Shown: piece by piece, positions 658-63,809 of the stretch
Layout: each line of letters begins with the position of its first letter
How positions within the stretch are numbered: position 1 is the stretch's first letter
Origin: an uncultured Gammaproteobacteria bacterium
GTDB lineage: Bacteria > Patescibacteriota > Patescibacteriia > UBA1558 > S5-K13
DNA: 64,000 nucleotides
Direction of reading: 5' to 3'
NCBI GenBank assembly: GCA_964424195.1
Contig: CAYRHT010000002.1
Span: 144,120-208,119 of the forward strand
Position numbers and translations under genes: made by a program
Notes under the pieces: generated by a model
The model's database searches: none
What the model was told of the DNA's origin: nothing
What the model saw: only the letters and a program-made list of their open reading frames with translations

Positions 658-747
658 TGGCGGAGAGTGAGGGATTCGAACCCCCGGAACCCGTGAAGGC
701 TCAGTAGTTTTCAAGACTACCCCATTCGACCACTCTGGCAACTCTCC
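658..747 (-). tRNA. tRNA-Ser (anticodon UGA), long variable arm, CCA encoded
   Basis: Cloverleaf by eye: GGAGAGT acceptor, anticodon loop CTTGAAA, T-arm GGTTCGAATCC, 3' GCCA; about 90 nt. Confidence 0.85.
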
Positions 748-755
748 GTATGGGT

Positions 756-830
756 TGGCTGGGCTGGTAGGATTCGAACCTACGCATGACGGGATCAAAA
801 CCCGCTGCCTTACCACTTGGCTACAGCCCA
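756..830 (-). tRNA. tRNA-Gln (anticodon UUG), CCA encoded
   Basis: TGGGCTG acceptor, anticodon loop TTTTGAT, T-arm GGTTCGAATCC, 75 nt. Confidence 0.85.
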
Positions 831-902
831 ATATTTAAAATAACAGTTCCTATATACTAATATATTTTTAGGGTTTTTGCAAGTATTAGAGTGGATTTTA
901 TT

Positions 903-932
903 TAATTAAAAAAGGCACCGTTATTTAGTGCC
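903..932 (-). terminator. Hairpin GGCAC-N9-GTGCC plus U-run after the small basic protein gene
   Basis: Inverted repeat at 914..932 followed by T-run on the minus strand. Confidence 0.4.
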
Positions 933-944
933 TAATATTTGAAA

Positions 945-1184
945 CTAGTAAGCTCTAGCTACTCTTGTGATATCAAAGACCTCTTTTAATAACTTCTCTC
1001 TTTTAATGCGAGGATTTATTCTTTTTAATCTTTTCATTTTGAATCGACGGGCTTTGACTATTTTTTCTACATTAAATGTTCTTCTTACAGAACGTATTGC
1101 TTGTTCTTTGTTCCTTTTCTTTGGATAGAAGATCTCTAATTTTTTAGAACCCATAATTTTAGCAATAATTTCATAAGTGTGCAT
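945..1184 (-). CDS. Small highly basic protein, possibly a ribosomal protein (bS20/bS21-like); identity uncertain
   Basis: 79 aa, Lys/Arg-rich; strong RBS AGGAGG 4 nt upstream of ATG. Confidence 0.35.
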   Translation of the reverse strand: MHTYEIIAKIMGSKKLEIFYPKKRNKEQAIRSVRRTFNVEKIVKARRFKMKRLKRINPRIKREKLLKEVFDITRVARAY

Positions 1185-1271
1185 ATTTCCTCCTAATAGA
1201 TTTATTTGTGATTGATTGTTGATATGTTAATGTATTTTCTAATCTTTGGCAAGAGTTGGAATGTTTTAATA

Positions 1272-1299
1272 TTGACAAAAAAGGTAAGAAGTATAAGAT
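1272..1299 (+). promoter_or_regulatory. Sigma70-like promoter TTGACA-N16-TAAGAT upstream of Cys-rich gene pair
   Basis: Consensus -35 with acceptable -10; about 30 nt upstream of RBS. Confidence 0.35.
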
Positions 1300-1329
1300 A
1301 TTGGTATAAAGAATATTGAAGGAGGAATT

Positions 1330-1479
1330 ATGTCAGTAGGTTGTTCAGAATGTGATGGAACAGGAGAATGTTATAGTGACCCAATTAAATGTGATGCTTG
1401 TCGTGGTACTGGTAGAGTACAAGACAGGACATGTCGAATTTGTTGTGATGATCCTTGTACTTGTACTAGGAGTCGTTAA
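1330..1479 (+). CDS. 49-aa Cys-rich mini-protein with DnaJ-type zinc-finger CxxCxGxG repeats
   Basis: RBS GGAGGAATTATG; CSECDGTG and CDACRGTG motifs plus C-terminal Cys cluster; not in the ORF track (too short). Confidence 0.6.
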   Translation: MSVGCSECDGTGECYSDPIKCDACRGTGRVQDRTCRICCDDPCTCTRSR

Positions 1480-1507
1480 TTTTTAATGATAATTGAAAGG
1501 AGGAATC

Positions 1508-1795
1508 ATGCCTGTTATTACAATGAAAGTAACCTGAGATGGATGTGAAGGTACTGGACGTATCACATATCCGAATGGTACTTCGTGTACTAAATGTTGG
1601 GGTTCAGGAGTAGAACAGGGTTTTTGGGGAGATAAAGTATGTTCAGGATGTGACGGAGAAGGTAAGGTTAGAGATAAGCCCAAGAAATGTTCTATTTGTG
1701 GTGGTAAGGGAAAACTATGGGGAAGCTGTTGTCCTAAATGTGGTGAAAATCCTTGTAGTTGTAAGGGTTATAAAAAAGATTATTCACCATGGTAG
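1508..1795 (+). CDS. 95-codon Cys-rich mini-protein with four DnaJ-type CxxCxGxG repeats, containing an in-frame TGA at 1535..1537 (candidate Sec/readthrough, or pseudogene)
   Basis: RBS AGGAGGAATCATG; frame stays open through TGA to TAG at 1793; no alternative start downstream of TGA; TGA sits at the first Cys position of the first CxxCxGxG repeat. Confidence 0.5.
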
Positions 1796-1802
1796 TAAAA
1801 TT

Positions 1803-1832
1803 AAAAGGAGCTTTTTAAAAAGCTCCTTTTTT
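1803..1832. terminator. Strong bidirectional rho-independent terminator (13-bp perfect stem AAAAGGAGCTTTTT/AAAAAGCTCCTTTT, T-runs both sides)
   Basis: Perfect inverted repeat between the Cys-rich gene (plus) and pyrG (minus). Confidence 0.65.
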
Positions 1833-1849: not shown

Positions 1850-3478
1850 TTACTTCTTATACTTATTAGCCGCTTTTATAAAATCATTGAATAATGGATG
1901 AGCTCGGAGAGGTCTGGATTTGAATTCAGGATGGAATTGAGAACCAAGCATGAAAGGATGATCCTTTATTTCTACTATCTCCATTAAATTATGATCTGGA
2001 GAATCTCCAGAGATTACTAAACCAGCTTTTTCTAATACTTCTCGATAATCATTATTAAATTCATATCTATGTCTATGTCTCTCAGATATTTTAGTAGTTT
2101 GATAGGCTTGATAGGCTTTAGTTCCTTTTTTAACTATACATGGATATGCTCCTAATCTTAATGTTCCACCTTTAGCTCTAGAATCTGATTGTCCTGGTAA
2201 GTAATGAACGATAAGGTTTTTAGTTTTAGGATTGAATTCTTCTGAGTTAGCATCTTCTAAACCAGCAACATTACGAGCATATTCAATAGCTAGAATTTGA
2301 GAACCTAGACATAATCCTAAATAAGGTACTTTATTCTCTCTCGCATATTTAGCAGCTCTAATCTTTCCTTCAATTCCTCTACTTCCAAAGCCACCAGGAA
2401 CTACTAAACCATCTAATTTCTTTAATTTAGCTAGTTCTTTACGGTCATTCTTCTCTAATTGAGCTGAATCGACCCAAACTAGGTCTAAACTAGTGTTATT
2501 GTTATAACAAGCTGATTTAAGAGCCTCATTAACACTTATATAAGCATCAATATTCTCAGTATATTTACCAATTAAACCAATAGTTACTTTCTTATCTATC
2601 TTCTTAATCTTAGTTAATAATTTATTCCATTCTTTTAAATCTGGTTTTTTACCTTTAAGTTCTAGATGATCATAGATAATCTTAGAAATCCCAGCTTTTT
2701 CAAAGTTTAAAGGAACTTCATAGATAGTTTTAACTGTCGGAGCTGGAATGACTGCTTCTGGTTTAACATTACAGAACATAGATATCTTGTGAATTCCTTC
2801 TTTGCCAATTTTAGTTTCAGTTCGAGCAATAATTGCATCAGGAGTAATTCCTCTTCTAAGTAGTTCTTTAGCTGAAAGTTGAGTTGGTTTAGTTTTGGTT
2901 TCATTAGAAGCAGCAATGTAAGGGAGTAGGGTTACATGAGCGAACATGCAGTTATGATAACCTTGCTCTATTCTAATTTGTCGAGCAGCTTCTAAAAGAG
3001 GTTCTCCTTCAATATCTCCAACCGTTCCTCCAATTTCAATTATTAGAATATCAGTCTGACTCTCCTCTGCTGCTTGATAAATACGTCTCTTAATTTCATC
3101 AGTAATATGGGGAATAATTTGAATAGTTCTTCCTAAAAACTTACCTTTTCTTTCTTCACTTAAAACCGCTTGATATACTTGTCCAGTTGTTAAGTTAGAA
3201 AGTTTAGAAAGATTAACATCAATAAATCTTTCATAATGACCTAAATCTAAATCTGTTTCAGTTCCATCATCAGTTACATAGACTTCTCCATGTTGGTAAG
3301 GGCTCATAGTTCCAGGGTCGATATTTAGATAAGGATCTAATTTTAGAGTAAAAACTTTGTAGTTAGCAGATTTCAAAATAGCTCCAATAGAAGCACTAGA
3401 AATACCTTTACCTAAACCAGAACAAACACCACCAGTTACAAATATGTATTTAATATCTTTTCTATTTTTTTTAGCCAT
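1850..3478 (-). CDS. pyrG: CTP synthase
   Basis: N-terminal GGVCSGLGKG synthetase motif and C-terminal class I glutamine amidotransferase motifs; 542 aa. Confidence 0.95.
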   Translation of the reverse strand: MAKKNRKDIKYIFVTGGVCSGLGKGISSASIGAILKSANYKVFTLKLDPYLNIDPGTMSPYQHGEVYVTDDGTETDLDLGHYERFIDVNLSKLSNLTTGQVYQAVLSEERKGKFLGRTIQIIPHITDEIKRRIYQAAEESQTDILIIEIGGTVGDIEGEPLLEAARQIRIEQGYHNCMFAHVTLLPYIAASNETKTKPTQLSAKELLRRGITPDAIIARTETKIGKEGIHKISMFCNVKPEAVIPAPTVKTIYEVPLNFEKAGISKIIYDHLELKGKKPDLKEWNKLLTKIKKIDKKVTIGLIGKYTENIDAYISVNEALKSACYNNNTSLDLVWVDSAQLEKNDRKELAKLKKLDGLVVPGGFGSRGIEGKIRAAKYARENKVPYLGLCLGSQILAIEYARNVAGLEDANSEEFNPKTKNLIVHYLPGQSDSRAKGGTLRLGAYPCIVKKGTKAYQAYQTTKISERHRHRYEFNNDYREVLEKAGLVISGDSPDHNLMEIVEIKDHPFMLGSQFHPEFKSRPLRAHPLFNDFIKAANKYKK

Positions 3479-14095: not shown

Positions 14096-14644
14096 TTATT
14101 TTATCTTATTATTATAGATTAAATATTTAGCATAAGTAGCTAAACTTAGGTCATCTCTTATCTTTCCAGATTTAATGTATTTTTGCAAATCTTTAGTAGA
14201 TAATTTAATCATTTCTGTATATTCTTCATTGTTTTGAAAGTTTTGATCTTTGAATTCTACATTCTCTGCTAAATAGGGATATATTTTAATATCACAGAAG
14301 CCAACACTTTCATCATATCTACCCAAAGACTTCCAAGATTTAGAAACTAGTCCTAATTCTTCAAATAATTCTCTTTTAGCTGCTTTTAAAGGTGTTTCAT
14401 TTTCTTCAATTCTTCCAGCAGTAAATTCAATGGTTTCTTTATTCATTGGATAACGCCATTGTTTTACTAGATAATAATTTCCTTTTTGGTCTTTAGCTAT
14501 TACTGAAACTCCACCTAAATTACCTCTAAATACAACTGAATAAATTCCTTTTTTACCACCTTCTAAAATTTGATCTTCCCGAACTTTAAGGAACTTACTA
14601 TTATACATTAACTTACTACTAATTGTTTTGTAGGGATTTTTCAT
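14096..14644 (-). CDS. NUDIX hydrolase
   Basis: Nudix box GRIEENETPLKAAKRELFEELGL. Confidence 0.8.
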   Translation of the reverse strand: MKNPYKTISSKLMYNSKFLKVREDQILEGGKKGIYSVVFRGNLGGVSVIAKDQKGNYYLVKQWRYPMNKETIEFTAGRIEENETPLKAAKRELFEELGLVSKSWKSLGRYDESVGFCDIKIYPYLAENVEFKDQNFQNNEEYTEMIKLSTKDLQKYIKSGKIRDDLSLATYAKYLIYNNKIK

Positions 14645-47825: not shown

Positions 47826-49328
47826 TTATTTGTATTCAAACATTTCATGTTTTAAAGCTACCTTCTGACCTAAGTCTAAACGAGAATCAGAATTAGCATA
47901 CAAAGTAACTAGGAGGTCTCCAGTTTCTACTTTGTCACCAGCTTCGACATGGAAGTATAGTCCAGCTTCTTTAATTCTAGGATTTCCTAAAGCTCGAGCT
48001 AATTCAAATATTCTTTTGTTGTGAATCAAGCCAATTGTTCCAGATTGAGCTGCTCGATATTCATAAGTCTTGTCACCTGGCTTTAAATCACTAGATTTAA
48101 TATTTTCATTACCACCTTGATTTTTAACAATTTCTTTAAATTTAGCATATGCTTTACCGTTTAAAAGAGTTTCCTTGGCTAGGTCATATCCTTTACCAAC
48201 CTTAGCTTTTCCTACTCCTTCTAGTAATACTCCAGCCATTTTCAAAGCATCTTCTTCTAATTGAAGTGATCTCTTTGGATCTTGTTCGTAGACCATTAAG
48301 AACTCTTTACATTCTAAAATTGGACCAACAGCATTACCATCCATGTCAGGAGTTTCTCTTTTGTAAACAATCACTTTAATATCGAATTCTTTACCTAGAG
48401 TTTCAAATTTAGTTTTAACTTCATCAAATTCTTCTTCAGTAATTTTAGCTCCCTTACCAACTGGAACATCAAAGATGACAGTATTAACTCCCTGAGCTAT
48501 TTTTTTAGCTAAAATACTAGATACAAACTTATCAATTGATTCAATACCAATTGCTTTTTGAATTTTAATAATCTCATCATCTGCTGGTGCTAAGTCTAAT
48601 CCTCCGCCCCAGACCATAAATGCTCCGGATTTTTCAATCATCGCTTCTAATTGTTCTTTCTTGAAAGACATTGGCATAATTACTTCTAACATATCAGTTG
48701 TAGCACTAGCACTAGTAATAGCTCTAGTTGAGGTATTAGGAACAATAATTCCATTAGCAGCTATGATTGGAACAACAATTGGAGTAATTCCTTTACCAGC
48801 TACTCCACCAATAGAATGTTTGTCGGCAGTAATACCGGTAAATTTTAATACTTCACCAGTTAAAGCTAAAGCTTTAGTCATATGTTTAATCTCTTGATCA
48901 TTAAATCCAGGAGAATAACCACTGGCAATAAAAAGAGTTTTAAAAATCTTTGATAGATGACCACTAGCAATGTCAGAGATGATAACATAGAGGTCTTCAT
49001 AGCTTAATTCTTCCCCAGCTAATTTCTTCTTAATAGCTTCAATAGCTTCTGACTTATTAAATAACTTAAGTTCTACGACAGCATCATCTTCAATACCATA
49101 TTTTTGCCAAATGTCTTCGTAGATACCAATTTGTCCTTCATTAACAAAGTCATTAGTAGTGTCTATTACCACAATAATTGGTTTTTCAACATTATCAATT
49201 TTTAATTCTACTCGATCACCTCTATTTAAACCAACGCCATATTGTTCAGCATCTTTGTCATTGATTAAACAGATTAAATTATCACCAGAAGTGATATCAA
49301 GTTTTTTAGCTTTTAAAAAGTCAGACAT
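47826..49328 (-). CDS. AMP phosphorylase / thymidine phosphorylase-family nucleoside phosphorylase with N-terminal extension (500 aa)
   Basis: Pyrimidine-nucleoside phosphorylase core (SIGGVAGKGITPIVVPIIAANG...TSTRAITSASATTD) plus about 100-aa N-terminal domain as in archaeal AMP phosphorylases. Confidence 0.8.
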   Translation of the reverse strand: MSDFLKAKKLDITSGDNLICLINDKDAEQYGVGLNRGDRVELKIDNVEKPIIVVIDTTNDFVNEGQIGIYEDIWQKYGIEDDAVVELKLFNKSEAIEAIKKKLAGEELSYEDLYVIISDIASGHLSKIFKTLFIASGYSPGFNDQEIKHMTKALALTGEVLKFTGITADKHSIGGVAGKGITPIVVPIIAANGIIVPNTSTRAITSASATTDMLEVIMPMSFKKEQLEAMIEKSGAFMVWGGGLDLAPADDEIIKIQKAIGIESIDKFVSSILAKKIAQGVNTVIFDVPVGKGAKITEEEFDEVKTKFETLGKEFDIKVIVYKRETPDMDGNAVGPILECKEFLMVYEQDPKRSLQLEEDALKMAGVLLEGVGKAKVGKGYDLAKETLLNGKAYAKFKEIVKNQGGNENIKSSDLKPGDKTYEYRAAQSGTIGLIHNKRIFELARALGNPRIKEAGLYFHVEAGDKVETGDLLVTLYANSDSRLDLGQKVALKHEMFEYK

Positions 49329-57450: not shown

Positions 57451-57538
57451 TGGAGCGGGAAACGAGATTCGAACTCGCAACCTCTTGGAAGCAATCAACT
57501 TGTGCCGCCAAGCACTCTACCAATTGAGTTATTCCCGC
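57451..57538 (-). tRNA. tRNA-like gene with tRNA-Gly-type acceptor/D/T arms but a 19-nt anticodon loop (intron-containing or degenerate; anticodon undetermined)
   Basis: GCGGGAA acceptor, D-arm ACTC-AATTGGTA-GAGT, T-arm GCGAG-TTCGAAT-CTCGT, 3' TTCCCGC-T-CCA; CTTGG/CCAAG stem encloses CGGCACAAGTTGATTGCTT. Confidence 0.5.
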
Positions 57539-59412: not shown

Positions 59413-60672
59413 TTATTTCCCCCAATACTTTATAGCATCATAATATTCTTGAAAGTATTCTTTGGGTTTAGTTTTAGCTTTTTTATCAATAGCTAGCTCT
59501 ATAGATTGCCAACAAGCTCTAGCACCAGCAATAGAACCATCAGGATGTCCATGTAGTCCTCCACCAAAGTTAATAATTAAATCTTCACCAAGTATTTTAA
59601 TCATTTTAGCTACTAATCCTGGATGTAATCCACCAGAAGCAATTGGAAGAGTTGGTTTTATCTTACCCCAATCTTCTCTGAGAACTAGATTAATTCCAGC
59701 ATCTTCTTTTAAAGCTAGGTTAATTTCTTTTACTTCTTCCTTAGTTCCATCCATTTTACCAACAACTGTTCCGGTATGTAATTGATCTATTCCAGCTAAT
59801 CTGGCTAACTTAGCAATAACTAACATAGTCATACCATGTCGAGGATCACGAGTAAACATAGAATGTCCAGCTCGATGACCATGAATGATCATTCCTAAAT
59901 CTAATTTTCTTAAAACTTGAACATTATCTAAACCTACAGAAACTAAATCTACCATTACACATTTACCACCATGTTTTTTAACAAACTTAGCTCGATTTAA
60001 CATAGTGTCCATTGGAGCAGTGATATTGAAAACATGTATTTTCTTACAACCAGTTTCTTTTTCAGCTTTTCTTTTTAACTTCATTACTTCTTTAACTCTA
60101 GTTTCAAACTTGTTAAAGCCCATACTAGTCAGATTTTCATCATCTTTTACTACATCAATACCATTAGTCCAAATGTTGTAAGCTAATTGAGCATGTTGTT
60201 TTGATGTTAGACCTACTTTAGGCTTAATAATTGAACCAACTAGAGGTCTATTCTTAATACCAACTAACTTTCTAACTCCATTAATACCTAATTTAGGTCC
60301 TTGAAATGAATTAATGTATTTAGTTGATAGACTTAAATCTTCTAATCTTAATTTATCTACACATTTCATTGAGAAAATATTACCAGCTAAAGATGAAAGT
60401 AATTGAGGAATACTTCCTAATTCAAATACTTCAATAGGATAGGCTATTTTAACTATCTTAGTTTTTTTGTTAATTGAATATACTTGAGGAGCTAATTTAT
60501 TGAAAGTTTTTTGTTCTAAAGTGCCTAATGTTGTCCAAGTACCAATAGAAGATTCTTTAGCTACTTCAATAGCTGCGTCTTTCAAGCTTAATTTAGATTC
60601 AATTCTAAAAGTAGCAATAATATCATCTTTCTGAGGTTTGTATTTTAGATTAACAAAGGAAGTCTTTTTCAT
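59413..60672 (-). CDS. rbcL: RuBisCO large subunit, form III-like (II/III) (419 aa)
   Basis: Active-site motifs KPKVGL, GIDVVKDDE (carbamylated Lys), HGHRAGH, SGGLHPG, GGGLHGHP all present. Confidence 0.85.
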   Translation of the reverse strand: MKKTSFVNLKYKPQKDDIIATFRIESKLSLKDAAIEVAKESSIGTWTTLGTLEQKTFNKLAPQVYSINKKTKIVKIAYPIEVFELGSIPQLLSSLAGNIFSMKCVDKLRLEDLSLSTKYINSFQGPKLGINGVRKLVGIKNRPLVGSIIKPKVGLTSKQHAQLAYNIWTNGIDVVKDDENLTSMGFNKFETRVKEVMKLKRKAEKETGCKKIHVFNITAPMDTMLNRAKFVKKHGGKCVMVDLVSVGLDNVQVLRKLDLGMIIHGHRAGHSMFTRDPRHGMTMLVIAKLARLAGIDQLHTGTVVGKMDGTKEEVKEINLALKEDAGINLVLREDWGKIKPTLPIASGGLHPGLVAKMIKILGEDLIINFGGGLHGHPDGSIAGARACWQSIELAIDKKAKTKPKEYFQEYYDAIKYWGK

Positions 60673-62204: not shown

Positions 62205-63809
62205 TTATTTCTCTTCCTCTTTATTTTCTTGAGCTTCTTCTTTACCAATTTTAAAAGCATCTTCTAAACTCATTTTCTTAGATTCCTTATTCAATTCTTT
62301 ATCTTTTTTAATTGTTGTAAAACAATCATTACAATAGACTGGTCGAACACCATCTGGTTCAAAGGGAACTGATATTTCTTTGGAACATTCATCACATTTA
62401 GTTTTATGAAGTCCTTCTTTGCTCTTAAAACTACTGTCACCTTTAGAAACTGATCTTTTTTCTTCTTTTTTTGTAGTTTGAGAAGGCTTAGTACCTTGAG
62501 CATCATGTTCTTGAGAGATTATTTCTTCTTCTACTCCTCCACTCCATTTTAATATTTTTCTTTCTACTACTTCTCTGTTTGCAGTATATTTCTCTCGAGA
62601 AACTCGAATAACTTTGTCAGTTGTTTCCGCTCCATTATCTGGAATTGGTATTGGTTCTAAAGTTAAAGATTGAAAAGGACTGGAAGCAATTCCATCAATC
62701 ATTAATTTAATATATATTTTGTATTTTGCTAAATTAACTAAATCTTCTGGAGAAATATTAGGAGCGAATTCTTTTTCTAAAAATTCAGCATCAGCTGCTC
62801 CAATTCTAAAAACTATTAAAGTTCCAACATTACCAAAAATAGCGGCAGCTACTGATTCTTCTAATTGTTCTATGTATTGATGAGCAACTATTAAGTTTAA
62901 TCTGTACTTTCGAGCTTCAGAAAGAATATTAGTAAATGATTCGGTAGCAAAGTTTTGAAACTCATCAACATAGAGATAGAAATCAGCTCTGTCTTCTTCC
63001 GGCATATCAACTCGACTCATAATTGCTAATTGAATCTTAGTAATAATCATTGCTCCTAGTAAAGCTGAATTATCTTCCCCAATTCTACCTTTGGATAGAT
63101 TTAAGAGAAGAATCTTTTTACTATCAACCACATCTCTTAGATCTAATGATGATTTAACTTGACCTACAATATTTCTAGTTAAGGGAGTAGAAAGAAAACG
63201 ACCAACTTTATTCTGAATCGGAGCTATAACTTCAGCTTGAAACTTTTGAGGATATTTATCATATTCATCTATCCAAAAGGAACGCACTACTGGATCGGTA
63301 AGATTTCTGACAACTTTAGACCTATAATCTTTATCAACTAACATCCTCATAATACCTAGAAGAGTAGAATCTGGATATTCTAAAAGAGCCATAATAGTAT
63401 TATTCAAAACATATTCTAAACGAGGTCCCCAAGAGTCAGCCCATATTTTCTTAAAAATTCCTAGTAATCCTGAAGCAATTAGATGTCTTTTCTCAGGATC
63501 TACATTCTCTAAAACATTGAAGGCGATAGGATGTTCATAATCAGCTGGATTAAAATAGATGACATCATTTATTCTGTCAGATGGTATAAAATTCAATACT
63601 TTTTCTACTAAATCACCATGAGGATCAACTAAAGCAATTCCATGACCATTTCTAATATCCTGAATAACCATATTTTCAATCATACAAGACTTACCCATAC
63701 CAGTTTTTCCAACTAAATACATATGACGTCTACGATCGTCAGTTTTAATACCGAATTTCTTGTATTCTCCTCGGTAATCAGTTTTAGCTAATAATGTTAT
63801 TTCACTCAT
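62205..63809 (-). CDS. VirD4/TraD/TraG-like (FtsK-HerA superfamily, DUF87-like) P-loop ATPase with C-terminal CxxC zinc ribbon
   Basis: Walker A VGKTGMGKS, Walker B YLYVDEFQNF, C-terminal CDECSKE...CNDCF. Confidence 0.55.
   Translation of the reverse strand: MSEITLLAKTDYRGEYKKFGIKTDDRRRHMYLVGKTGMGKSCMIENMVIQDIRNGHGIALVDPHGDLVEKVLNFIPSDRINDVIYFNPADYEHPIAFNVLENVDPEKRHLIASGLLGIFKKIWADSWGPRLEYVLNNTIMALLEYPDSTLLGIMRMLVDKDYRSKVVRNLTDPVVRSFWIDEYDKYPQKFQAEVIAPIQNKVGRFLSTPLTRNIVGQVKSSLDLRDVVDSKKILLLNLSKGRIGEDNSALLGAMIITKIQLAIMSRVDMPEEDRADFYLYVDEFQNFATESFTNILSEARKYRLNLIVAHQYIEQLEESVAAAIFGNVGTLIVFRIGAADAEFLEKEFAPNISPEDLVNLAKYKIYIKLMIDGIASSPFQSLTLEPIPIPDNGAETTDKVIRVSREKYTANREVVERKILKWSGGVEEEIISQEHDAQGTKPSQTTKKEEKRSVSKGDSSFKSKEGLHKTKCDECSKEISVPFEPDGVRPVYCNDCFTTIKKDKELNKESKKMSLEDAFKIGKEEAQENKEEEK

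Follow-up and report, generated by a model that had tools for sequence, protein, structure and literature searches.

The small gene mini2 lies near the start of a 64-kb stretch of bacterial DNA from contig CAYRHT010000002.1, which we refer to here as the window. It is a 95-codon open reading frame (ORF) for a stand-alone DnaJ-type cysteine-rich zinc finger, and it is broken at its tenth codon by an in-frame TGA. The TGA is real and stands at a cysteine position, and UGA is a stop codon elsewhere in this genome; the gene belongs to an orphan accessory insertion, and hairpins are present both in mini2, after the TGA, and in the neighbouring gene mini1, after an ordinary cysteine codon. We suggest that the TGA is best explained as a recent nonsense allele that left mini2 a pseudogene, leaky at most, an explanation that we rank above all others while giving it slightly less than even weight. 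An earlier sequence-only reading had proposed that the codon was either a selenocysteine (Sec) or other recoding site or the mark of a fresh pseudogene, and the evidence assembled below still leaves both alternatives in play. The features on which the argument turns are as follows, in window coordinates.

1508..1795, plus strand: mini2, 95-codon ORF, stand-alone DnaJ-type Cys-rich zinc-finger domain, broken by TGA at codon 10
1535..1537, plus strand: in-frame TGA, codon 10, in the place of the first Cys of CxxCxGxG repeat 1
1541..1572, plus strand: mini2 hairpin of the minimum-energy fold, starting 3 nt past the UGA
1576..1592, plus strand: second small hairpin, 6 bp, made of GTAC palindromes in Gly-Thr codons
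1721, plus strand: variant site in one locus (L017), G>T, changing Gly72 GGA into a second in-frame TGA
1330..1479, plus strand: mini1, 49-aa Cys-rich mini-protein with two CxxCxGxG repeats and a Cys-rich tail
1394..1432, plus strand: mini1 hairpin, 14 bp, loop GGUAG, directly after the ordinary Cys codon TGT at 1390-1392

The in-frame TGA of mini2

The mini2 frame is laid out as the sequence-only reading described it. The Shine-Dalgarno (SD) sequence AAGGAGG (1497-1503) stands 4 nt ahead of the ATG at 1508, an arrangement identical to that of mini1 (SD 1319-1325, ATG 1330), and past the TGA the frame stays open for 85 further codons to a TAG at 1793-1795. The same reading held that no alternative start exists downstream, and indeed the frame past the TGA has no ATG, GTG or TTG; only ATC 1562 and ATT 1694 occur. 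Re-initiation past the UGA was considered and rejected, as the sole nearby ATG (1539), judged by eye, is out of frame and opens an ORF of 24 codons. Hopping of the T4 gene 60 type, from ACC 1532 to ACT 1553, was likewise rejected, as it would remove the first CxxC motif.

In 10 loci, namely the source contig and those of nine further assemblies (JGI, ENA and Logan samples), the ORF is identical over all 288 nt, and an eleventh locus, L017, carries the same TGA plus one further change, the substitution at 1721. With the TGA identical at the assembly level in 11 loci of different samples, a sequencing or assembly error at 1537 is so improbable that it can be neglected. The only entries for the ORF in the public protein collection are P0001 and P0002, which have Trp at position 10 where the DNA has TGA. 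Both derive from short contigs (L003-L010 and L017) on which the gene caller used a code that reads UGA as Trp (code 4), and the 95-aa translation accordingly carries W10, with W72 in addition in one variant. The W10 protein is an annotation artefact that masks the stop codon and has no DNA support under the organism's own code.

That TGA otherwise behaves as a stop, as the sequence-only reading maintained, is borne out across the window. The long ORFs contain no in-frame TGA in about 17,600 codons, out-of-frame TGAs being plentiful, and five real genes end in TGA, one of them in an ATGA overlap at 14641-14644. Another of the five is the gene for MnmA, with the last Pfam domain complete at residue 353/354. 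Since in-frame TGAs are lacking and genuine TGA stops are present, codes 4 and 25 are excluded for this genome, and no tRNA with a UCA anticodon was found in the 64-kb window. An odd tRNA gene at 57451-57538 on the minus strand (a 57.4-bit tRNA match) was considered as a UGA decoder and rejected, as it has no UCA anticodon. This tRNA has a Gly-like body (acceptor stem GCGGGAA, G3-C70, U73) and a 19-nt anticodon loop; it goes unnamed in the default mode of ARAGORN and is called tRNA-Ala(UGC) in the intron mode, with GGCACAAGTTGA as an insert of 12 nt separating positions 32 and 33. In the RNAfold model its anticodon arm grows to 5+4 bp with a 9-nt loop, and a normal tRNA-Ala(UGC) lies 140 nt upstream.

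For the protein searches, position 10 of mini2 was set to Cys. A word-index search of 5.8 billion proteins and a full HMMER scan of 1.84 billion cluster representatives returned the same population (P0001 and P0002) together with distant homologues of at most 46% local identity, the best-scoring of them at 42%. These form a sparse family of proteins 79-107 aa long, each with a linker of the GFFGEKVC type among its four CxxCxGxG repeats. All 9 homologues have Cys in the alignment column of the TGA, and the nine codons upstream of the TGA also align (N-terminal MP...KV[TE]C). One mark of a selenoprotein gene, a UGA aligned with Cys in homologues and flanked on both sides by coding homology, is therefore seen here; another, independent Sec (TGA) orthologues in other organisms, was not found, the protein and DNA scans having returned no second family member with TGA, or with W, at the Cys position.

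The four repeats of mini2 occupy residues 10-17 (with the TGA as first Cys), 27-34, 45-52 and 61-68, and the family profile matches the Cys-rich domain of E. coli DnaJ (1EXK) across all four (E 2.5e-12); the single mini2 sequence scores 29.1 bits against PF00684, under the 32.7 cut-off. The TGA aligns with the first Cys of the 1EXK domain, the residue that in DnaJ is the first ligand of zinc site I, and the ancestral codon of mini2 was probably a Cys codon. An AlphaFold model of mini2 (mean predicted local distance difference test, pLDDT, 71; predicted template-modelling score, pTM, 0.37) has 1EXK as its top Foldseek match (E 4e-4, with a template-modelling, TM, score of only 0.35-0.41), with DnaJA2 and BSD2 next in rank. 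Within the 95 codons the match is confined to the Cys-rich domain, and neither a J domain nor the C-terminal substrate-binding domains are present. Thus mini2 is a stand-alone DnaJ-type zinc finger and not a DnaJ protein, and its product, so far unannotated, adds a new stand-alone member to the family of the DnaJ Cys-rich domain, like BSD2 and anti-TRAP. The placement of the TGA at the first Cys of a CxxCxGxG repeat, which the sequence-only reading had drawn from an alignment with the upstream paralogue, consequently holds on the evidence of the homologues and of 1EXK; the paralogue itself is a poor guide at this point, as mini1 corresponds, with 41% identity over 41 aa, to the C-terminal half of mini2 and resembles the region around the TGA only at the level of the motif.

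A protein search for TGA-bearing neighbours with mini1 as anchor gave no homologues of mini1. A scan of GTDB genomes with the single mini2 protein found no relative, and phage records gave only weak DnaJ-like matches. The degenerate DNA pattern G[FVL][FW]G[DE][KR]xCxxCxGxG had nine matches in JGI metagenomes (a collection that does not include the source contig), of which only the P0004 contig, already known, belongs to the family, and three matches in GTDB genomes, none of which does. No mini2 orthologue was found outside the same population, so that conservation of the UGA and its hairpin has no comparison set. The homologues, all with Cys, come mostly from low- to mid-GC contigs. One of the distant homologues, P0014, has as neighbours another three small ORFs of 62-89 aa that are Cys-rich and zinc-ribbon-like (L020 263-1003, minus strand), which suggests that mini zinc proteins cluster in these genomes.

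Hairpins in mini2 and mini1

In the hairpin that begins 3 nt past the UGA of mini2, an AA/A internal loop separates a lower stem of 7 bp from an upper stem of 5 bp, which is capped by the loop UGGAC. The hairpin is worth -10.9 kcal/mol alone, and its pair probabilities are 0.96-0.99 in a context of 141 nt; a fold of the first 60 nt past the UGA reaches -17.9 kcal/mol, and mini2 outside the hairpin is unstructured (z above -1.5). Two rare codons fall in the 3' arm of the hairpin, CGT, which accounts for 10% of Arg codons, and ATC, which accounts for 14% of Ile codons. The upper stem lies 12 nt from the UGA, as against 11 nt in E. coli fdhF, and the loop lies 17 nt from it. The loop contains a G, and bacterial Sec insertion sequences (SECIS elements) have a conserved apical-loop G (PMC1794560, Fig. 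4 legend). The hairpin fits the geometry of such an element, and the sequence-only reading was therefore right to expect a stem-loop at a SECIS-like distance. The particular stem that it had drawn (1547-1554 with 1578-1584) exists but is weak, at -2.4 kcal/mol alone, and the best fold that contains it reaches only -8.3 kcal/mol. Folding of the 60 downstream nucleotides, which that reading had put forward as a check, thus yields a stable hairpin, but a search of Rfam over 1480-1700 with E values up to 10 gave no match to a SECIS family.

In mini1, a hairpin just as good stands behind a TGT that is an ordinary Cys codon, and this weakens the mini2 hairpin as evidence specific to Sec. The 45 nt downstream of the mini1 TGT fold at -15.5 kcal/mol (p 0.006 by synonymous resampling and 0.0065 by codon permutation), and among the 16 Cys/TGA codons of mini1 and mini2 these two hairpin positions stand out, with the mini1 hairpin the stronger. 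A common structure was considered and rejected, as the two hairpins are not in register, and we make no claim of covariation. The mini1 hairpin could be a fossil SECIS, an RNA element shared by the two genes and unrelated to Sec, or a by-product of GGT-ACT (Gly-Thr) codons with their GTAC palindrome.

The locus and its host

The remaining features of the locus and of the window that bear on its origin are these.

658..830: tRNA-Gln/tRNA-Ser pair
884..1828: lineage-specific insertion of about 950 bp (p79, mini1, mini2, terminator), delimited by blastn and tblastn against relatives
945..1184, minus strand: p79, very basic orphan ORF of 79 aa with its own terminator-like hairpin at 913-933
1272..1299, plus strand: promoter-like site TTGACA-16-TAAGAT, matching 10/12 positions (a consensus match only)
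1803..1830: bidirectional intrinsic terminator with a 12-bp stem, from a terminator scan, common to the operon and pyrG
1850..3478, minus strand: pyrG, converging on the mini-gene operon
47826-49328, minus strand: match to glycosyl-transferase family 3 / PYNP_C domains, read as an AMP-phosphorylase-like gene
59413-60672, minus strand: RuBisCO large-subunit homologue
62205-63809, minus strand: type IV secretion coupling protein (TrwB/TraG-like) with a C-terminal treble-clef zinc finger

The two mini-genes form a small operon between pyrG and the tRNA-Gln/tRNA-Ser pair, in the order promoter-like site, mini1, mini2, terminator, and the terminator begins 8 nt past the TAG of the full-length mini2 ORF. 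The segment 884-1828 is an orphan accessory insertion. By blastn and tblastn it has no counterpart in the relatives L011-L016, whose PyrG is 87-92% identical and which do match at pyrG and at the tRNA pair; in these relatives the tRNA pair directly follows pyrG or another insert occupies the same site. Thus L011 (PyrG 92% identical) has an ABC-transporter pair there (L011 7686-9595), and relatives with PyrG 87% identical have nothing inserted at the pyrG/tRNA-Gln junction (L014 7626-7834). This junction is a hot spot for insertions. The 95-aa "gene" that has been called on the downstream side of pyrG in a relative (L014 7763-8050 and L016 2287-2574, both minus strand) is a spurious ORF running through the tRNA-Gln and tRNA-Ser genes. 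No Pfam match was found for p79, and no homologue but itself among the 5.8 billion proteins.

The window, which belongs to a 952,420-bp contig of a JGI metagenome, has a G+C content of 29.9% and is densely coding under table 11, and the host genome is about 0.95 Mb. The nearest named relatives of its CTP synthase (PyrG) are Patescibacteria, the Candidate Phyla Radiation (CPR). Gene content agrees with this placement, given the RuBisCO large-subunit homologue, the AMP-phosphorylase-like match, the type IV coupling protein and many cell-envelope glycosyltransferases. The RuBisCO and AMP-phosphorylase-like genes fit the nucleotide-salvage pathway described for CPR.

Neither SelA, SelB or SelD domains nor a tRNA-Sec were found in about 72 kb (the 64-kb window and 8 kb of L001), or about 8% of the genome. 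In the literature searched, nothing links Sec machinery or selenoproteins with CPR/Patescibacteria, or Sec with DnaJ-type motifs, and a 2026 review of selenoproteomes in prokaryotes is silent on CPR and on DnaJ-type proteins alike. The host probably has no Sec machinery.

Readings of the TGA and known systems

If mini2 carries a recent nonsense allele, which we take to be the leading explanation at somewhat under even confidence, a single T-to-A (or C-to-A) change would have turned the first zinc-ligand Cys codon (TGT or TGC) into TGA. As mini2 sits in a small orphan insertion of an essentially clonal population, the allele could have been fixed without being purged. Translation from the ATG at 1508 would end after 9 residues at the UGA through release factor 2, with at most a trace of full-length protein arising from natural UGA leakiness, and the product is thus probably truncated. 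The lesion would be young, since the SD sequence, the terminator and the remaining 12 Cys of mini2 are still intact, and the mini2 hairpin would be a feature of both mini-genes unrelated to Sec, since mini1 has one after a normal Cys codon. A nonsense allele is favoured because UGA is a normal stop in a Patescibacterium with a genome of only about 0.95 Mb, because Sec components are missing from the 72 kb covered and Sec from the CPR literature searched, and because the locus is accessory and orphan, p79 having no homologues and the nearest homologue of mini2 being 42% identical. It is favoured further by the lack of an Rfam SECIS match and by the fact that the strongest SECIS-like hairpin of the operon follows an ordinary TGT in mini1. 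Nor is a nonsense hit on a Cys codon a rare event in mini2, which is 14% Cys: 13 of its 61 single-base nonsense paths (21%), and 13 of the 29 that lead to TGA, fall on Cys codons. The second in-frame TGA of L017, at a Gly codon and with no hairpin after it, is weak evidence in the same direction.

Several observations count against a nonsense allele, most of them to do with the hairpin. The 60 nt after the UGA fold more stably than dinucleotide shuffles (-12 ± 2.6 kcal/mol, p 0.015-0.04) or synonymous resamplings (-9.5 ± 2.5 kcal/mol, p 0.003-0.004), and they also stand out by codon permutation of mini2 (p 0.004-0.0085) and, at p 0.023, against 60-nt stretches of matched GC content that follow TGA triplets. 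Over all tests of the hairpin the ranges are p 0.003-0.007 for resampling and p 0.004-0.0185 for permutation. A SECIS-like filter at -12 kcal/mol passes 5 of the 2507 TGA triplets in the window, and among the 15 passing at -10 kcal/mol that of mini2 alone is in frame in a gene. Six Cys homologues, on other contigs, have no comparable hairpin after the first Cys codon (z -1.2 to +0.1). No intact Cys allele of mini2 is present in the 15-billion-protein collection, in at least 36 blocks of which the organism was assembled, and the reference allele has no second lesion; the second TGA of L017 removes only the non-conserved tail and, being known from a single low-coverage contig, may be an error. 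Finally, the TGA is the one codon among the 61 nonsense paths that lies just upstream of the hairpin, and if the hairpins are unrelated to Sec this coincidence favours Sec by about 60 to 1. The prior for a 0.95-Mb CPR genome keeping four Sec genes, and for their use on an orphan accessory zinc finger, is low and not quantifiable from the data; when it is taken as a few per thousand, a nonsense allele and Sec become comparable. We treat it as a tentative and rather unlikely proposal, though the foremost rival, that the UGA at 1535 is recoded by SelB and Sec-tRNA(Sec) with the hairpin at 1541-1572 as a bacterial SECIS. On this proposal the product would be, with the same reserve, a 95-aa UxxCxGxG zinc-finger or redox mini-protein, and selA, selB, selC and selD would lie elsewhere in the genome. 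The pairing of UGA with a Cys kept in all nine homologues, the coding homology on both sides, and the position, loop G, rare codons and statistical singularity of a hairpin that is confined to that part of mini2 and absent from the six Cys homologues all speak for Sec, as does a TGA fixed in all assemblies of an operon that is otherwise intact and terminates after the full-length ORF. Against it stand the missing Sec machinery and tRNA-Sec in the 72 kb, the lack of reported Sec use in the phylum, the absence of the insertion from relatives, of a second TGA-bearing homologue from every collection scanned and of an Rfam SECIS match, the equally good hairpin after the TGT of mini1, the second TGA of the L017 variant, and the role of the residue, a zinc-ligand Cys not being a typical Sec site.

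A further account, which we regard as improbable, is that the insertion was transferred horizontally from a Sec-using donor, complete with UGA and SECIS, into a host that cannot decode it, so that mini2 was dead on arrival; mini1 would already have been repaired to TGT while keeping a fossil SECIS, a step to which we give equally little credence. Such a transfer would explain both hairpins and the position of the TGA without Sec machinery in a CPR genome, and the insertion is indeed recent, orphan and next to tRNA genes; moreover, former selenoprotein genes that keep remnants of SECIS-like structures behind their Cys codons are on record (Zhang et al., 2006; PMC1794560, Fig. 4). However, all known homologues have Cys and no Sec-using source has been identified, SD sequences and codon usage match the host, and two separate assumptions are required, namely that the insertion came from a Sec user and that mini1 underwent a Sec-to-Cys repair. 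We attach a similarly small probability to read-through or recoding without Sec, in which a near-cognate (Trp or Cys) or suppressor tRNA, possibly aided by the hairpin, or the use of code 4 or 25, would yield a fraction of full-length protein. No stop codon is leakier than UGA, which here has the hairpin directly downstream, the GGA>TGA change of L017 would be synonymous under code 25, and public gene callers have already translated the ORF with code 4 (P0001, W10). Yet the genome gives no sign of a code in which UGA is a sense codon and has genuine TGA stops, the window lacks a UCA-anticodon tRNA, and Trp or Gly at position 10 would destroy a zinc ligand that is Cys throughout the homologues; we know of no established bacterial mechanism by which a hairpin stimulates UGA read-through without SelB.

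The consequences of the two leading readings differ greatly. Were the UGA at 1535 to encode Sec, which we think doubtful, mini2 would be the first selenoprotein, and the first evidence of the Sec-decoding trait, in Patescibacteria/CPR. It would also open a new family of selenoproteins, stand-alone UxxCxGxG fingers of the DnaJ type with Sec in place of a zinc site I ligand (or of a redox Cys), and its paralogue mini1 would keep a fossil or parallel SECIS-like hairpin after Cys. Selenium use would then reach the CPR, a huge and metabolically minimal branch of the bacteria from which there has been no prior report, and a metal-binding zinc finger of the DnaJ type would join a selenoprotein catalogue made up mostly of redox enzymes. 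A nonsense allele would make mini2 an ordinary young pseudogene in an accessory island. It would also be a caution that a Cys-rich gene can mimic the signature of UGA at Cys plus downstream hairpin on which selenoprotein finders rely. Code 4 as applied to short contigs by public gene callers has already placed an artefactual Trp-containing protein in public collections.

In comparison with SelB/SECIS recoding as known from E. coli fdhF, mini2 shares an in-frame UGA opposite Cys, a stem-loop immediately 3' of it, a G in the loop, and nearly the same spacing from UGA to upper stem (12 nt as against 11 nt). It differs in its loop, UGGAC in place of a GU-containing loop with a bulged U, and in the replaced Cys, which is a structural zinc ligand and not a typical catalytic redox Cys; in addition, its host phylum has no known Sec trait, and the mini2 UGA and hairpin are conserved in no orthologue. 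The mini1 hairpin is similar to the documented remnant SECIS elements (PMC1794560) in lying directly after an ordinary TGT Cys codon, but a former Sec in mini1 has no supporting evidence and the hairpins of the two genes are out of register. As a protein, mini2 has the four CxxCxGxG repeats of the DnaJ Cys-rich domain (PF00684; 1EXK) and its GFF-type linker between repeats 2 and 3. In contrast to DnaJ, its family consists of stand-alone proteins of 79-107 aa that lack the J domain, the G/F region and the C-terminal substrate-binding domains, and the mini2 copy adds a CCxxCxxxxCxC tail. Closer in architecture are plant BSD2 (6EKB) and Bacillus anti-TRAP (2BX9, 3LCZ), which are likewise small proteins made only of DnaJ-type CxxCxGxG zinc motifs. 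Both appear, weakly, among the sequence and fold matches (anti-TRAP at E 4e-4 to 4e-3, BSD2 at Foldseek E 0.03-0.1). BSD2 is a RuBisCO chaperone, and the RuBisCO gene of the window lies 58 kb from mini2; the mini2 locus differs from that of anti-TRAP in having no trp/TRAP context, but mini1, with 49 aa and two repeats, is of anti-TRAP size.

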